A stretch of 49,694 nt of DNA from an uncultured Pseudomonadota bacterium. GTDB lineage: Bacteria > Pseudomonadota > Alphaproteobacteria > Rs-D84. Below are positions 20,371-25,229 of this stretch, one piece after another. Location: NCBI GenBank assembly GCA_947306185.1, contig CAMZFU010000003.1:1-49694 (forward strand). The letters are read 5' to 3'. The notes under the pieces are model-generated. The model saw only the letters and a program-made list of their open reading frames with translations. It did not search any database and was not told the origin of the DNA. The position numbers were made by a program, and so were the translations under genes. How positions within the stretch are numbered: position 1 is the first letter of the stretch; every line of letters begins with the position of its first letter.

Positions 20371-21441
20371 TTATCTATTTTTGGGTTTGATTCCGTATGC
20401 AATGCCAATTTCGGCATGCGGTGCCCATTTATCATAGTGTTCATACAATGGGCTTTCTGGATTGGTTAGATACAGCGGATTATGTTTTGTCGCACCTATT
20501 GACCCGTACGCCCCCGTTTTTTTGTGAAAAACGGATACATTTGCACCGGCAATACCATCATCTTGTTCTTTGAATGCATTTATCGCGATGGATACTTGGT
20601 CACCACTAAATGTATGGCAATATGTCATATGTAATGCGCCCCGCACCCCAAGGTTGATTGCCTGTAATAAAATGGCATCATGCGGTGTTGGCATACATAT
20701 TAGTTGCAGATTACCGAATGTTTCTTTGTTATTAGTTGCCATAACCCCACCAAATTGGATGTTTTCCCCTATGCGTTCTTGGACGACCAATACGACATAT
20801 CCATTCCCCGTAAATTGAAAACCGGGTGTGTTTTCCATATAGCCCAATGAAACGGTATGTTCGTCATTTTCGTATGTGCCGATTACCGCGCGCGGAAAAT
20901 AATATCCCGAATTCATATACAGGGCATTTATAAAGAACGTACTAATTGGCATGCTTTTTGCAAATTTAGCAGAATAGTTTAATGGCGAGAAATTTCCAAC
21001 CTTTACATTAAAATTACCGACACTGGTTCGCAAATCCATGGTCATATACATATCGTGTGTTAAATGTGTCATGGATGTCGTGGTGTAATTTTGTATCATT
21101 TGTGTTGTGGTAAGGCCAACGGTGAACTTGTCATAGAAACGTACAAACGGACTAACCACCACCAATGGGGCAAATACGGTGCGAACATTATTAGTGGTCG
21201 CATGTGTGAAAGATTGCAATTCAACATACAATACATCTTGGGGGTGCCCAAATTTGACCGCCGGATTTTTCGGTTTTGGTTTTGGGGTCAAACTAATTGG
21301 ATTTTGGTGTGTCAAAGTGTTTCTAATAGGAACAGAATCATTTTGCGATTGACCAATTGCACGCCCACCTAAAAACAAAGATATCAAACACGCAACAAGA
21401 TATTTTTTATTTGCAATTAAAAATTGATAATTTCTATTCAT
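20371..21441 (-). CDS. Exported beta-strand-rich hypothetical protein, possible outer-membrane barrel (start at MNRNYQ)
   Basis: Signal-peptide-like KKYLVACLISLFLGGRAIG|Q, alternating polar/hydrophobic strands, C-terminal AEIGIAY. Confidence 0.55.
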   Translation of the reverse strand: MNRNYQFLIANKKYLVACLISLFLGGRAIGQSQNDSVPIRNTLTHQNPISLTPKPKPKNPAVKFGHPQDVLYVELQSFTHATTNNVRTVFAPLVVVSPFVRFYDKFTVGLTTTQMIQNYTTTSMTHLTHDMYMTMDLRTSVGNFNVKVGNFSPLNYSAKFAKSMPISTFFINALYMNSGYYFPRAVIGTYENDEHTVSLGYMENTPGFQFTGNGYVVLVVQERIGENIQFGGVMATNNKETFGNLQLICMPTPHDAILLQAINLGVRGALHMTYCHTFSGDQVSIAINAFKEQDDGIAGANVSVFHKKTGAYGSIGATKHNPLYLTNPESPLYEHYDKWAPHAEIGIAYGIKPKNR

Positions 21442-21588
21442 AGTGCATAGAACATAATACACATAATTTAGTTTGTCAAACATAAGTATAAAATTTTGCA
21501 CAAAAATTATTGTGTTTTTGTGTTTGTAACTGGTCAATATTTATGATATAATCATATAGACAAAGAATAAAACAAAGGAAGGGAGATT

Positions 21589-23283
21589 ATGAAAATAATG
21601 CATAAATCTTTGATTGGTGCGATGGTCGGATTGGTTTTGGCGAACGGCGCGATGGCGGCGGAATGTAACATTGTATCAGATCGCGATCCATTGTCCGGTG
21701 CATTGAAATTTATTGGTGGGGGCCTTGGGTTGGCAACATCTGTGATAGCTGCACCGTTTGCGGGATTGATTGCTGGACCACTTGGTATTACCGCGGTAAG
21801 CATTGGTGGTATATATTTGGGGGCCAAAGTTGGTGCCAAGGTTTATGCCAAGGATGATTATATTTGTTTTGATTCTGATGGTAAAAAATGCCTGCAGTGT
21901 GATATTCACCAAATTGGTAAGCCGTATGAATGTAATGACGGCAAGGTCGTTTTAGCACCGGGTATTGCCAAACGTTGCCATACCAGAGTTATTGGTAAAG
22001 ATGCTTGGAAAGATTTCAAGGTTCCAATGTGTAGTGGGTCCAAGGCACTAACTGGCGACCCAGGTAGTGTAGAGATTATTGTAAATTCCAGATTGAAAAA
22101 GAATTTGGCTTCTTCTGGTGTTACAGGGGCATTTGTTGTTGAAGACGATGTATGCTATACATACAAGTGCGCCGATGGTTATAGCGAAAAAGGCGGAAAA
22201 TGTGTCAAAAAGGGTGGGCCAGGCCCAAATCCAAGCGATTGTGAAAAGGCCGGTGGTAAGTTGGTAAATGGCCAATGCCAATGCCCAGAGGGTCAATTGC
22301 TTGATACGAGACTTCAGAAGTGCGTAAAAGCAACAGAATGCCCAAATTGTCAAGGTAATATATTTATATTTGCGGATAATGGTAGTGTCATTGTAATAGG
22401 TAACAATAACAATGTAAACAATGGTGGTAACCACAATACCTATAACGGTGGTGGCAGTAGCAGTTTGCAATCTTGTTTGGCGTCCCGTGCAACCCAAAAT
22501 GGTAAGGCATGTTGTTACCTGCCAAAGACAGGTATAAATGGGGCAACGTATAATGCACAAAACGATGCTTGTACGTGCAACGACCCAAGCAAGAAATTCT
22601 CGGTTAGAACCGATGGACAAGGTCAATGTCTTGGGGGCAATGGTCCGGTACCACCAAATCCAAAACATTGTCCACAGTACATGTATCCTGATGTGAACGG
22701 TGTTTGTCAATGTTCCAAAGAAAATCAGACACCAATTAACAATAATACCGCATGCAAATGCGCGGTACCGAATGCAACAAATGATGCAAACGGTGATTGT
22801 AAATGTAATGAAGCGGGCAAAGTTATTATTGATGGGCAATGTGTAACACCGGGTGTGCAATGCGATCCAGTAACACAAACCAAGGTTGGTGATAAATGTG
22901 AATGTATTGCAACAGATGCATACATTGAGAATGGTGTCTGTAAATGCAAGAACAAAGATATGGTGTTGAAAGATAACAAATGCGTTATGGACGAAAGCAA
23001 GATTGACGAAATTCGTGGTAGAATATCTGCGACATTCAGCCGTTTAAGTTCCACAATGGGTGGTTTTGAAAGGAATGTTTGGAAAAATGCCGAAGGTGAA
23101 TTTAATACCGCACGTTTGGCATCAGATAGTATCGCGGGTGTCGTTCTTGGTACGGCCGGTGGTATTATCACATCCAAATTGGTGAAAAAGAACCAATTGA
23201 AGACAGGTTTCGAAGACATCAAATGTTCAATTGGTGGTCAAACCGTTGCAAGTTATGGCGATACGTTTAGTGTTGGTATGTAA
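21589..23283 (+). CDS. Secreted cysteine-rich protein with Gly-zipper-like segments and CxC repeats
   Basis: SD AAGGAAGGGAG, signal peptide ending AMA|AEC, 37 Cys by manual count, seven CxC motifs. Confidence 0.85.
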   Translation: MKIMHKSLIGAMVGLVLANGAMAAECNIVSDRDPLSGALKFIGGGLGLATSVIAAPFAGLIAGPLGITAVSIGGIYLGAKVGAKVYAKDDYICFDSDGKKCLQCDIHQIGKPYECNDGKVVLAPGIAKRCHTRVIGKDAWKDFKVPMCSGSKALTGDPGSVEIIVNSRLKKNLASSGVTGAFVVEDDVCYTYKCADGYSEKGGKCVKKGGPGPNPSDCEKAGGKLVNGQCQCPEGQLLDTRLQKCVKATECPNCQGNIFIFADNGSVIVIGNNNNVNNGGNHNTYNGGGSSSLQSCLASRATQNGKACCYLPKTGINGATYNAQNDACTCNDPSKKFSVRTDGQGQCLGGNGPVPPNPKHCPQYMYPDVNGVCQCSKENQTPINNNTACKCAVPNATNDANGDCKCNEAGKVIIDGQCVTPGVQCDPVTQTKVGDKCECIATDAYIENGVCKCKNKDMVLKDNKCVMDESKIDEIRGRISATFSRLSSTMGGFERNVWKNAEGEFNTARLASDSIAGVVLGTAGGIITSKLVKKNQLKTGFEDIKCSIGGQTVASYGDTFSVGM

Positions 23284-23301: not shown

Positions 23302-23327
23302 AAAACGGGTGCATATGCGCCCGTTTT
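23302..23327. terminator. Bidirectional intrinsic terminator
   Basis: AAAACGGGTGC ATAT GCGCCCGTTTTT. Confidence 0.75.
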
Positions 23328-23362: not shown

Positions 23363-24115
23363 CTAATGTGAACGACGGTGGCCGTAATACCACGAATGTG
23401 CGGTATGTATATATTGTGCGGCACGTTCAATATCAAATTGCCCGGTTTTGGGATTACGTAATTGTTCTTCGGCGTCAATCCATGTAATATAATTGTATGG
23501 CAACACCAAATTGATTTTTTCAAGTTCTTGGGCGATATTATCCGGCCCCAGGCCCCCACTGTATCCCGTTTTATGATTTTGCATAATCGGACCACGATAT
23601 TTCTTGGATATAATTCCACGGCCACAGGACGAATCATAAAGCAATGAAAATGGTGCCCCTGTTGCGTTTAGTGGACGAATACGATTATGCTGTCTTGGTG
23701 CATATTGGAATATGAATTCTATATCAGGATATGCATTGATAATATCCGCAACCCGTTTGGAATAGCAATGATAATTCTGGTCGCCACCATTTAGGTTTAT
23801 TTGAACCCGTCCAATAACAGGTTTGCCATTATAACGTTTGATTTCTAGAAAATTATTAACTTCTTCGGGAATTTTGCCCTGGCACATCATAGTACGCCAA
23901 TCTGCATTTATATGCATGGCCAAATTGACATCATTAACCGTGCATTCATTGGCCAATGTCCAAAACCAGTCATATCGTGGCATATGTGCCGAAAACTTTG
24001 TTGGATGTGCCTGAATTGCAAATTCTGATTGGGGCCAACGTTTGCCTAAATCGATAATATCACCGACAACGTTATATTCACGCATATCACTGCATGTTAT
24101 TTTTTCCAGTATCAT
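23363..24115 (-). CDS. TrpF (PRAI)-like TIM-barrel protein, function unknown (start at MILEKITCS)
   Basis: AAAGGAG SD; LLYDSSCGRG, GYSGGLGPDNI and WIDAE resemble the PRAI LLD..GG.G / LAGGL.P.NV / GVD motifs. Confidence 0.6.
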   Translation of the reverse strand: MILEKITCSDMREYNVVGDIIDLGKRWPQSEFAIQAHPTKFSAHMPRYDWFWTLANECTVNDVNLAMHINADWRTMMCQGKIPEEVNNFLEIKRYNGKPVIGRVQINLNGGDQNYHCYSKRVADIINAYPDIEFIFQYAPRQHNRIRPLNATGAPFSLLYDSSCGRGIISKKYRGPIMQNHKTGYSGGLGPDNIAQELEKINLVLPYNYITWIDAEEQLRNPKTGQFDIERAAQYIHTAHSWYYGHRRSH

Positions 24116-25229
24116 CAATTGCTCCTTTGCTGGACATTCTCGCCTGGCCACTAATTCTTAATTGTCCGCATGCGGAACCGATATCGGTGCCACGTTCACG
24201 CCGTATGCGTGTGTGTACCCCGTTTTTGATAAGTATATCTTGAAATCTATGAACCGCATTGCCTGATGGTGACGTGAATTCGCGTTCGGCCACCGCATTC
24301 CATGGAATAAGGTTCACCATACAATTTTTTCCGCGTACAATTTCTACCAATTGTTCGGCACAATCCTGGGTGGCATTCAACAGATTGCCATCCTTATCGC
24401 CCAACAATATGTATTCTATCATCAATTGGCGGTTGTGAGCGTCGGTAAATCGCCACGCGGCGTCCATTATATCCGAAATGGAATACTTGTTTGCTATGGG
24501 CATTATTTTGCGCCGCAGGGCATCATTAGGTGCGTGTAAAGATATGGCCAGGTTGATTGGTCGTCCCCATTCAATAAGTTTATCTATGCCCGGCACAATG
24601 CCACACGTGGACACCGTAATACGGCGCCACCCGATTCCCATATCACGATTGGCACGTTCAATGAATCCAATGACGTTTTCGGTGTTCTGTAACGGTTCGC
24701 CCGTACCCATAACAACGATATGTGAAACATCGTTATTGTTTGCATCGCCATTTGGACGAATTGGTTTGTCTGATAACCGATCAGCACGCAATTCCCATTG
24801 GGCGACAAGTATTTGTGCAAAAATCTCGTTTATTGTTGTTAGATTACGTTTAAGCCCCAATAAAGTGCTGGCACAGAATTTACACCCCATTGCGCATCCG
24901 GCCTGGGAACTAACACATACACTATTACCGTAACTGGTTCGCATTAAAACACATTCAATACGTTCGCCATCATTAAGTTCCAACAAGAATTTTACCGTTT
25001 GTCCGTCGGTTGAAGACAATTTTTTAACGACACGGCATGGTAAAGTTTGGGCATTCGTCTCCAAATCATTACGCAACTTTTCCGGAATATTCTTCATAAC
25101 CGAAAAATCAGGGGCCCCGCGTGACATCCATTCAGAAATCTGTTTAGCGCGAAAACGCGGTTGACCCATTTGGGTTACAAAATCCGCTAATTCGGCATCA
25201 GTTAAATCAAAAAGAATTGTTTTGCTCAT
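24087..25229 (-). CDS. rlmN: Dual-specificity RNA methyltransferase RlmN
   Basis: CVSSQAGCAMGCKFCAS, VMGTGEPL, LAISLHA, VNLIPWN, RGTDIGSACGQL. Confidence 0.96.
   Translation of the reverse strand: MSKTILFDLTDAELADFVTQMGQPRFRAKQISEWMSRGAPDFSVMKNIPEKLRNDLETNAQTLPCRVVKKLSSTDGQTVKFLLELNDGERIECVLMRTSYGNSVCVSSQAGCAMGCKFCASTLLGLKRNLTTINEIFAQILVAQWELRADRLSDKPIRPNGDANNNDVSHIVVMGTGEPLQNTENVIGFIERANRDMGIGWRRITVSTCGIVPGIDKLIEWGRPINLAISLHAPNDALRRKIMPIANKYSISDIMDAAWRFTDAHNRQLMIEYILLGDKDGNLLNATQDCAEQLVEIVRGKNCMVNLIPWNAVAEREFTSPSGNAVHRFQDILIKNGVHTRIRRERGTDIGSACGQLRISGQARMSSKGAIDDTGKNNMQ

Follow-up and report, generated by a model that had tools for sequence, protein, structure and literature searches.

A lineage-specific C-terminal tail on exported proteins of Candidatus Enterousia and its candidate envelope partner

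Introduction

Envelope proteins of the PF05433 type (glycine zipper 2TM), such as SlyB, YfgH, OsmB and YiaD, show helices with GxxxG repeats, which anchor in the diderm envelope and oligomerise, and in YiaD the glycine-zipper anchor is combined with a periplasmic OmpA-like domain. Other systems place many cargo proteins of one genome under a single tag: the LPXTG, PEP-CTERM and GlyGly-CTERM signals, in which the C-terminal 25-35 aa or so combine a conserved motif, a hydrophobic helix and basic residues. In the YadA-like trimeric autotransporters, the only conserved part is a C-terminal anchor of approximately 90 aa located after a helix. The EGF and TNFR modules and DUF5874 consist of small beta-hairpins stapled by disulfides, with CxC motifs at regular intervals.

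The exported cysteine-rich protein described here, P0001, is encoded in a window (the whole stretch of DNA analysed) of 49,694 nucleotides from Candidatus Enterousia, a gut alphaproteobacterium of the order Rs-D84 with a genome of approximately 0.9-1 Mb. Its passenger resembles the EGF, TNFR and DUF5874 modules in its stapled hairpins and CxC spacing, and its C-terminal tail resembles the PF05433 zippers in the GxxxG-repeat helix, their oligomerisation being a further likeness to the tail system. Unlike the PF05433 lipoproteins, the tail shows no sequence match to that family and no lipobox, its zipper is C-terminal and has a single helix, and a conserved juxtamembrane motif and a cysteine hairpin are added to it; a separately encoded protein would supply the second helix and may be joined to the tail by a disulfide. 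The family that contains Candidatus Enterousia lives in the guts of humans, ruminants, horses and birds, and its genomes of approximately 0.9 Mb encode no respiration and almost no biosynthesis (PMC12306168). No literature on cysteine-rich proteins in Rs-D84 was found.

Results and Discussion

Gene layout and organization of P0001

The features of the gene and of its product are collected in Table 1.

Table 1. Features of the P0001 gene and protein; positions are those of the window.
Feature	Position	Strand	Evidence
CDS P0001, exported Cys-rich protein with family tail	21589..23283	+	ORF list, translation; ATG start, 564 aa
Promoter-like site TTGTAA-17-TATAAT with TG extension	21524..21552	+	Consensus scan, 10/12 matches, pattern match only
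Shine-Dalgarno AAGGAAGGGAG, 3 nt gap before ATG	21575..21585	+	Read from sequence
Intrinsic terminator-like hairpin, 11-bp stem and T-run	23302..23327	+	Consensus scan
Sec signal peptide, aa 1-23, A-M-A cleavage site	21589..21657	+	Basic n-region, hydrophobic core, AxA site
N-terminal Gly/Ala hydrophobic stretch, aa 43-85	21715..21843	+	Four GxxxG motifs; pLDDT <50
Cys-rich passenger part I, aa 89-255, 15 Cys	21853..22353	+	AlphaFold pLDDT mostly 73-95, beta-hairpin modules
Asn/Gly low-complexity linker, aa 256-289	22354..22455	+	pLDDT <50
Cys-rich passenger part II, aa 290-468, 20 Cys, repeated CxC-x12-14 modules	22456..22992	+	pLDDT mostly 87-96
Pre-anchor helix, aa 469-494	22993..23070	+	AlphaFold helix 469-491; conserved hydrophobic I479, L486, F493
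Juxtamembrane motif, aa 495-514: NVWKNAEGEFNTARLASDS	23071..23130	+	Column conservation, 67 sequences
Glycine-zipper hydrophobic helix, aa 515-532, then K533-K534	23131..23184	+	Alpha-type, not beta-type, periodicity
C-terminal beta-hairpin-like unit, aa 540-564	23206..23280	+	G540, C546, Q551 invariant

The sequence bears out the preliminary description: the 564-aa product shows a signal peptide, 37 cysteines, an Asn/Gly spacer, Pro-Gly hinges (GGPGPNPSD and GGNGPVPPNPKH), glycine zippers at both ends and exactly seven CxC motifs, at residues 230, 328, 373, 389, 404, 437 and 451. Cleavage is predicted after A23, between MKIMHKSLIGAMVGLVLANGAMA and AEC. The cysteine of this mature start, Cys26, is conserved in the orthologs (56-70% identity), and they carry E, N or S at position -1, which argues against a lipobox. 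Residues 43-85 contain two putative glycine-zipper helices with AGP between them. Tandem GxxxG motifs on alpha-helical hydrophobic segments are thus found both in this stretch and in the tail; the N-terminal stretch, of approximately 40 aa, is as long as a 2TM zipper of the PF05433 type and like it in composition, and hmmscan against Pfam-A gives no PF05433 match to it. It is restricted to the P0001 ortholog group and a few other proteins (L035, L036, L074 and L107).

Within the passenger, the C-x-C-x12-14 spacing is regular across residues 361-465, the pLDDT of part II dips once (to 56, at residues 351-360), the module at residues 287-365 is common to many family members, and the Asn/Gly linker differs in length between orthologs. 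Cysteines make up 6.6% of P0001, whereas the genome has a median of 1.2% and its 99th percentile lies at 6.5%. The high cysteine density reported before stands, but within this genome it is nothing exceptional, as the same genome encodes approximately 25 large signal-peptide proteins with at least 10 cysteines. Similarly, the regular CxC spacing holds, but the likeness to EGF/furin-type modules is generic only: Foldseek of the full P0001 model against the PDB gives nothing significant (best E 0.028, probability <=0.10, TM-score <=0.11), and its top matches, all non-significant, are LRP2, Delta-like 1, Pfs25, TNFR1 and the Entamoeba Gal/GalNAc lectin. Unlike EGF and TNFR modules, P0001 shows no significant fold or sequence match, a bacterial, host-like GC and a range of one bacterial family. 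A eukaryotic origin is rejected on account of this GC, the lack of homology and the clade restriction, and the comparison with protist surface antigens is not supported on the same grounds.

Searches of Pfam, NCBIfam and PDB sequences with P0001, the tail profile and the profile of the partner described below give nothing significant. Against Pfam-A (hmmscan), P0001 shows no family at E<=1, DUF5874 included, and PF05433 matches neither P0001 nor any of the 58 + 112 family members. DUF5874 (PF19202) matches five of the 58 and five of the 112 relatives, for example P0010 with 28.6 bits against a cut-off of 27.1. The genome contains DsbA and BamA, which indicate a diderm cell with an oxidising periplasm. 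An expansion of Dsb proteins, proposed as a check, is not present: the only DsbA is membrane-anchored, and the genome has no DsbB or VKOR.

Structure and conservation of the tail

The tail family shows the motif [SV]WKxxEGxFNTARLASDS, a GxxxGxxxG helix, KKNQ and a C-terminal GFEDIxCxIGGQ..A.WGD.F.VG. P0001 matches the 67-sequence profile with E = 6e-47 and has all of its invariant columns. Eight juxtamembrane residues are invariant in the 67 sequences: W498, G503, F505, N506, R509, L510, S512 and D513. In the zipper region, IAGVVLGTAGGIITS, residues G517, G521, G525 and S529 recur at i,i+4 and form a small-residue face; the mean Kyte-Doolittle value of helix 515-532 is approximately 1.65 (18 residues, by hand), with an 11-residue window maximum of 1.85. 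The sole invariant cysteine of the tail is Cys546 (codon 23224-23226), and in 215 of 218 tail proteins the tail shows exactly one cysteine. Between orthologs, the core tail is 90-96% identical, against 57-68% for the passenger. When the tail alone is modelled with AlphaFold from the 67-sequence alignment, the pLDDT of the conserved core is 40-55; a core that does not fold as a monomer fits a unit that depends on a partner or on the membrane.

A conserved C-terminal unit of approximately 90 aa behind a helix, variable passengers, the F-x-V-x-I alternation at the extreme end of the tail and the presence of BamA recall the YadA anchor, and the last 50 or so residues might be read as four beta-strands of an oligomeric outer-membrane barrel that exports the passenger. 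That reading can scarcely be credited: residues 515-532 show alpha periodicity and no beta-type hydrophobic moment (mu170 0.05-0.5), neither YadA_anchor (PF03895) nor any other Pfam family matches, AlphaFold predicts no barrel and no barrel-like strands in the tail, and the fusion proteins described below carry further domains after it. The passengers, unlike those of YadA, are disulfide-rich, and cysteine-rich, disulfide-bonded passengers are poor type V substrates.

Distribution and cargo of the tail

The preliminary description suggested that the C-terminal domain might be a family-wide tag, and the distribution supports it. The last 70-95 residues or so are present on at least 950 cluster representatives among 1.84 billion proteins, 925 of them at E<=1e-10, with matches reaching E = 1e-30 to 1e-52; these E values, together with the cysteine fraction, place the features of P0001 above chance. 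The fetched loci contain 103 distinct tail proteins, whose cargo belongs to eight groups without BLAST links between them, and 148 of the 152 Enterousia genomes have the tail, with one to 10 tail genes per genome of approximately 900 genes. The tail is thus not unique to P0001, and P0001 itself matches no characterised family. By sequence comparison, the tail is lineage-specific and absent from the domain databases; its range is one family (f1) of Rs-D84 Alphaproteobacteria, which comprises Candidatus Enterousia and sister genera.

The cargo kinds are Cys-rich rods, beta-sandwich repeats, coiled coils, OmpA-like domains, CarboxypepD_reg and SpaA/SdrD_B. The coiled-coil cargo of some tail proteins is very long (900-1100 aa). 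An OmpA-like peptidoglycan-binding domain is the cargo of 22 of 252 tail proteins (approximately 9%), which points to the periplasm of the bacterium itself and not to the outside, and so away from the adhesin or membrane-inserting effector for host or prey cells that the preliminary description suggested; YiaD, with its glycine-zipper anchor and OmpA_C domain, is a precedent for this arrangement.

A partner protein carrying domain X

In loci L108-L111, the tail is fused to a domain with three invariant cysteines (domain X), followed by a glycine zipper and a C-terminus with two cysteines. In 29 fetched loci, and at C29:4046-4924 in the genome of P0001, the same unit stands alone behind a signal peptide as a protein of its own. 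This protein of approximately 290 aa shows a signal peptide with an AxA-type site and no lipobox, domain X, a glycine-zipper helix and a C-terminal region, and its cysteines are the invariant 3 + 2. The zipper of the partner is weakly hydrophobic (mean Kyte-Doolittle approximately 1.3, by hand) and contains an invariant Glu. The partner was recognised through the fusion proteins and not through gene neighbourhood, and it is a component beyond what the preliminary description could see from the sequence. The fused variants show KD where the tail of P0001 has KK, and their topology might therefore differ.

Among 201 genomes of the order, 164 have the tail and 169 the partner: 162 have both and 30 neither. 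The partner is found without the tail in seven genomes, and one genome (G189) has divergent tails without the partner. In family f1, 10 of the 11 sampled genera have the tail and all 11 the partner, and outside f1 there is one marginal tail match. This co-distribution comes from a single clade and so counts as one evolutionary event, not many. Clustering of the flanking ORFs gives no dedicated neighbour gene for the tail, only housekeeping synteny (dnaA, gyrB, dnaJ, plsY and dprA). A tail gene usually lies approximately 4 kb away from the partner, with the genes arranged as plsY-partner-dprA-dnaA-tail gene; as this order runs through the housekeeping genes dprA and dnaA, plain synteny is possible.

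The fusions bear on the comparison with sorting signals. Like LPXTG, PEP-CTERM and GlyGly-CTERM proteins, the tail proteins show a signal peptide, variable cargo, a C-terminal motif, a helix and basic residues, and a sortase-like enzyme such as exosortase or rhombosortase could cleave the tail off, or the tail could be a tag for a dedicated exporter. We regard this as very improbable. The tail is longer than those signals, with conservation that spans approximately 70 residues, on both sides of the helix, and includes a unit of 30 residues beyond the basic pair, the NCBIfam CTERM models do not match, and the fusion to domain X argues that the tail is retained in the mature protein and not cleaved. 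Rhomboid-family proteases (PF01694) were found in none of 21 genomes, the control being positive in 14 of 14, which speaks against the rhombosortase route.

Cysteine counting and the proposed docking

The number of cysteines in the mature passenger is even in 197 of 218 tail proteins (p = 5e-37). In the tail-X fusions, the counts are even for the passenger, 1+3 for tail and X, and 2 for the C-terminus. A set of giant proteins contains an X-like domain and a tail-like end, and shows the pattern odd / even / 1 in 115 of 118 homologs (p = 7e-65), the region between the zippers having an even count in 117 of the 118. By hhalign (96.2%, E = 2.8e-9), the giant X-carrying protein ends in a unit homologous to the tail, and after two zippers the hairpin of this unit lies back on the X side. 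The parity of the cysteine counts argues indirectly that the lone cysteine of the tail pairs with X in an oxidising compartment.

From these sequence relationships, we consider it somewhat probable that tail and partner form a two-part docking and anchoring system of the envelope, a tail plug and an X socket, most like the SlyB/YiaD-type anchors. P0001 would be exported by Sec, and its 36 passenger cysteines would form approximately 18 disulfides that staple a chain of small beta-hairpin modules. The plug would consist of the helix, the juxtamembrane motif, the glycine-zipper helix, the basic pair and a short beta-hairpin with one cysteine. This hairpin would dock onto domain X of the exported socket, where Cys546 would bond the odd cysteine of X in an intermolecular disulfide, and the glycine-zipper helices of plug and socket would pack side by side in a two-helix, membrane-embedded anchor. 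The variable cargo would be tethered at the surface of an envelope membrane, most likely on the periplasmic side, and P0001, with its own N-terminal two-helix glycine zipper in cis, may be held at both ends. Yeast a-agglutinin offers an analogy, as its display subunit is held by disulfides on a wall/membrane-anchored subunit (Aga1-Aga2); that system is eukaryotic, unrelated in sequence, and has a GPI and cell wall anchor and no glycine zipper.

Several observations fit the docking poorly. Neither P0001 nor the partner has a lipobox, which leaves the outer membrane without a known route; coiled-coil cargo of the length given above is hard to fit within the periplasm; the partner zipper has low hydrophobicity and its invariant Glu; and the partner-only genomes and the tails of G189 do not follow the pairing. 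Helix 515-532 with K533-K534, taken alone, reads as a classical inner-membrane stop-transfer. P0001 could then be a plain type I inner-membrane protein with a cleaved signal peptide, a periplasmic passenger, a membrane span at 515-532, residues 535-564 in the cytoplasm with a free cysteine, and no docking. The alpha periodicity without a beta moment, the invariant D513 on the outer side, the KK on the inner side and the hydrophobicity of the helix agree with this, and a lone cysteine apart from an even-numbered passenger also fits a reducing cytoplasm. In view of the fusion and cysteine-parity results, this type I reading is quite improbable. The fusions put X directly after the hairpin, and standalone X has a signal peptide and so is exported; the homologous hairpin of the giant proteins comes back to the X side; and the even/odd bookkeeping extends to every segment of the giant proteins, a parity that the cytoplasm would not impose. 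Pairing in an oxidising compartment likewise makes a simple anchor in the inner membrane, with its end in the cytoplasm, less likely.

The side of the membrane on which the cargo lies separates the docking at the periplasmic face from surface display, in which the zippers would span the outer membrane, the hairpin and X would be periplasmic and the Cys-rich passenger would be outside, binding a host or partner cell. The passengers occur in many copies, vary strongly and look like adhesins (CarboxypepD_reg, SpaA/SdrD_B, long coiled coils), and only what varies would be exposed while the conserved parts stay concealed. This topology holds together for all three architectures and their even cysteine counts; in addition, the lineage presumably relies on other cells (PMC12306168). 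However, the OmpA-like peptidoglycan-binding cargo would land outside the cell, and a passenger with 18 disulfides needs an outer-membrane transport machine. Several genomes have a secretin gene 1.5-6 kb away from that of the partner, but this candidate is distributed across the order and does not track the tail. Surface display in this form is unlikely. The order-wide distribution speaks against the secretin as a tail-specific exporter; the gene adjoins dprA and may serve competence. A non-enzymatic variant, in which one socket would capture by disulfide the plugs of many ectodomains, the zippers would span the outer membrane and the surface-shown Cys-rich, Ig-like and coiled-coil cargo would mediate attachment to, or membrane contact with, partner cells, is a tentative possibility.

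Significance

The plug tail and the socket partner, neither of which is in Pfam, NCBIfam or PDB, are a defining innovation of this clade. The docking model predicts that Cys546 links plug and socket in a DTT-sensitive heterodimer, and that the two proteins together build a two-helix glycine-zipper anchor. If the cargo is periplasmic, the system would be a new envelope tether, in bacteria that have neither DsbB nor VKOR yet make dozens of disulfide-rich proteins. If the cargo is exposed at the surface, diderm bacteria would have a new way of anchoring proteins, distinct from autotransporters, sortases, T9SS and the lipoprotein routes, and possibly a display scaffold; the displayed cargo would contact the partner cells that these bacteria, with their crippled metabolism, depend on.

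P0001 gene and protein

The gene encoding P0001 is a genuine ORF, and its product shows every feature noted in the preliminary description: 37 Cys, exactly seven CxC motifs, a signal peptide, Gly-rich stretches at both ends, an Asn/Gly linker and Pro-Gly hinges. A C-x-C-x12-14 spacing is regular across residues 361-465. A promoter-like site and a strong Shine-Dalgarno sequence precede the gene and a terminator follows it, so that it appears self-contained; its GC content equals that of the remainder of the window. Cys makes up 6.6% of P0001 (genome median 1.2%, 99th percentile 6.5%); as the genome encodes about 25 large signal-peptide proteins with at least 10 Cys, such Cys richness is typical of the lineage rather than peculiar to P0001. 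Two adjacent genes on contig C14 of this genome encode large, Cys-rich proteins with signal peptides (837 and 724 aa, each with 37 Cys). These have another terminal motif in common, C..(I/V)E.CEDI[EN]M, which in the second protein follows a Gly-rich hydrophobic stretch and may represent a further C-terminal module family. The Asn/Gly linker differs strongly in length among orthologs, is much longer in the proteins P0007 and P0008, and may be prone to slippage. The two flanking ORFs have no match in Pfam or NCBIfam. In the 388-aa neighbour a signal-peptide-like start (MNRNYQFLIANKKYLVACLISLFLGG...) lies inside the ORF, so translation probably begins downstream of the listed TTG.

Features of P0001, its gene and related genes (C-numbers, contigs of the same genome; L-numbers, fetched loci)
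Feature	Position	Strand	Remarks
Promoter-like site	window 21524-21552
P0001 gene	window 21589-23283	+	ATG start, 564 aa
Terminator	window 23302-23327
Flanking ORF	window 20371-21537	-
Flanking ORF	window 23363-24151	-
Sec-type signal peptide			predicted cleavage after A23 (AMA|AEC)
Gly/Ala hydrophobic stretch	residues 43-85		40 residues, four GxxxG motifs
Asn/Gly linker	residues 256-289 (window 22354-22455)
C-terminal helix			followed by Gly-rich hydrophobic segment
Tail: helix	residues 469-494		conserved hydrophobic positions
Tail: invariant juxtamembrane motif	residues 495-514		W498, G503, F505, N506, R509, L510, S512, D513
Tail: hydrophobic segment	residues 515-532		alpha-type, not beta-type, periodicity; small-residue face G517/G521/G525/S529
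Tail: basic pair	residues 533-534		K533-K534
Tail: beta-hairpin-like unit	residues 540-564		one invariant Cys (C546)
Partner gene	C29:4046-4924	-	between plsY and dprA
Secretin gene	C29:6380-8005	-	541 aa, lipobox-like signal (FGGC), ~1.5 kb from partner gene
Giant carrier gene	C30:9399-12689	+	locus L125:100-3390; 1096 aa, Cys-rich
Sole DsbA homolog	C51:3382-4197	-	outside the window; two N-terminal TM helices
Cys-rich protein, 837 aa	C14:4737-7250	-
Cys-rich protein, 724 aa	C14:7260-9434	-
OmpA-like tail gene beside dsbA-like gene	L080:4472-6270; L102-L104; G003:C1:296357-297788		G003, another genome

P0001 shows no match in Pfam-A (E<=1), NCBIfam or PDB sequences; Pfam DUF5874 is narrowly passed by some relatives and not by P0001. 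In the AlphaFold2 model, based on a 58-sequence family alignment, the passenger (the part before the C-terminal tail; residues ~90-255 and 290-470) has a pLDDT mostly of 73-96 and consists of chains of small beta-hairpin modules, and confidence is low in the N-terminal Gly stretch, the Asn/Gly linker and the tail. A Foldseek search of the model against PDB gave nothing significant (best E 0.028). Its top, non-significant rows were LRP2, Delta-like 1, Pfs25, TNFR1 and an Entamoeba lectin, a generic likeness only to EGF/TNFR-type disulfide modules, and the earlier view of a eukaryote-like adhesin or effector is unsupported. A literature search on cysteine-rich proteins in Rs-D84 found no paper describing these proteins.

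A C-terminal tail shared by exported proteins

Only eight full-length homologs of P0001 were found among 5.8 billion proteins, and over the last ~95 residues these hardly vary, even where their N-terminal parts diverge. The family-wide C-terminal tag suggested in the preliminary description is borne out: a 67-sequence tail profile matched 950 cluster representatives among 1.84 billion proteins (925 at E<=1e-10), and a tail HMM recovered 103 distinct tail proteins from the fetched loci, nearly all with a signal peptide. The cargo of these 103 proteins contains 0 to 9.6% Cys and forms eight BLAST-unlinked groups; recognisable cargo comprises CarboxypepD_reg, SpaA/SdrD_B-type beta-sandwiches, long coiled coils and OmpA-like domains. 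The tail is the extreme C-terminus in this set, loci L108-L111 excepted, and among the best 150 of the 950 matches it lies at most ~6 residues from the C-terminus, except in P0032, where ~42 residues follow it. Identity among orthologs is 90-96% in the core tail and 57-68% in the passenger. OmpA-like cargo is a stable subclass (22 of 252 proteins recovered with an iterated profile; in P0090 its score exceeds the Pfam cut-off), and several of these tail genes are directly downstream of dsbA. Several genomes encode an OmpA-like tail protein of only ~275-290 aa on the same strand as a dsbA-like gene and ~80 bp downstream of it.

Loci related to P0001 belong to MAGs of Candidatus Enterousia or "Alphaproteobacteria bacterium" from ruminants, horses and birds (rumen, colon, faeces) and also from Hadza people; the assembly holding the window has 1.05 Mb and is 74% complete. 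Enterousia is assigned to the order Rs-D84, its genomes are smaller than 1 Mb, without a respiratory chain and with hardly any biosynthesis, and a partner-dependent lifestyle has been proposed (PMC12306168). In a search of 201 genomes of the order, 148 of 152 Enterousia genomes and nine of the 10 sampled sister genera of the same family had the tail, with 1-10 copies per genome (one canonical copy in the genome of P0001); the genomes of other families showed none, bar one marginal match.

Putative partner protein, fusions and giant carrier

The conserved tail core, modelled as a monomer, reaches a pLDDT of 40-55, with no confident fold even in a dedicated run. The tail was first taken for a type I inner-membrane stop-transfer, its small end lying in the cytoplasm, since this is what the hydrophobic helix followed by KK suggests when viewed by itself. 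The Cys counts also fit a cytoplasmic tail end: the passenger number is even in 197 of 218 proteins (p = 5e-37) and the tail contains exactly one Cys in 215 of 218. We moved away from this reading because the tails of L108-L111 run on into ~180 conserved residues, made up of domain X (three Cys), another Gly-zipper and a helical end that has two Cys. These fusions show KD in place of KK. The same unit also occurs as a standalone ~290-aa partner protein in 29 fetched loci; this has its own signal peptide, so X is exported, and a stop-transfer ahead of X would place one domain in opposite compartments in the fusion and the standalone protein.

The partner has no match in Pfam or PDB. Its profile matches 169 of the 201 genomes: 152 of 152 Enterousia and 17 of 20 of the sister genera; in other families it matches none of 29. 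Tail and partner are both present in 162 genomes, the partner only in seven, the tail only in two (one of them marginal) and neither in 30, a co-distribution that counts as a single evolutionary event since it concerns one clade. In most genomes a tail gene is ~4 kb from the partner gene, in the order plsY-partner-dprA-dnaA-tail gene. Fusion-bearing genomes retain the standalone partner and also a giant carrier, a Cys-rich protein of ~1040-1100 aa with 640 homologs, which is a core gene product of the family. Its X-like domain is followed by a zipper, ~200 aa and another zipper, after which come a basic stretch and the terminal hairpin IYCFIGADEAGxYGDLIEISV; this terminal unit is homologous to the tail (hhalign, 96.2%, E = 2.8e-9). 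In 115 of 118 full-length homologs Cys is odd through X, even between the zippers and single in the last 40 residues (p = 7e-65), which, with the homologous hairpin, also argues against a stop-transfer. The Cys pattern is thus odd/even/1 in cis; it is tail 1 plus partner 3(+2) in trans, and even passenger, 1+3 and 2 in the fusions. By these counts, the single Cys of the hairpin complements the odd one of X in all three architectures, and each segment keeps the even-number rule expected of an oxidising compartment.

Envelope context and proposed anchoring

BamA is present in 21 of 21 genomes, so these bacteria are diderms. The Dsb expansion that had been considered is not seen: each genome has one DsbA, with a CPYC active site and two TM helices that anchor it in the membrane, the second of them containing a CVC motif; DsbB, VKOR and rhomboid are each absent from the 21 genomes sampled across the order, with all controls positive. 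In a lineage devoid of respiration, this one DsbA would have dozens of Cys-rich proteins to serve. The single secretin may be part of a competence pilus rather than of the tail-partner system, since it is present order-wide and adjoins dprA.

We infer that the tail acts as a plug docking on domain X of the partner, the socket, where Cys546 would probably form an intermolecular disulfide with X and the two glycine-zipper helices would pair into a membrane-embedded anchor acting in the manner of a SlyB/YiaD-type zipper. A working precedent is found in E. coli, where SlyB, YfgH, OsmB and YiaD are outer-membrane lipoproteins with a 2TM glycine-zipper anchor, YiaD having an OmpA_C domain besides (bioRxiv 10.64898/2025.12.22.696046). 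P0001 has an additional cis two-helix zipper at the N-terminus, preceded by Cys26, which is counted in the even passenger total, and would perhaps be held at both ends. Three self-consistent topologies remain: all periplasmic, cargo outside or X outside. Passenger variability and adhesin-like domains speak for cargo outside the cell; the OmpA-like class, through its peptidoglycan binding, leads us to prefer cargo on the periplasmic side. The results support the suggested anchoring tag and widen it to a two-part system, which is outside any described family and kin to C-terminal anchor modules and glycine-zipper anchors, and by which variable cargo would be tethered at a membrane surface of the envelope.
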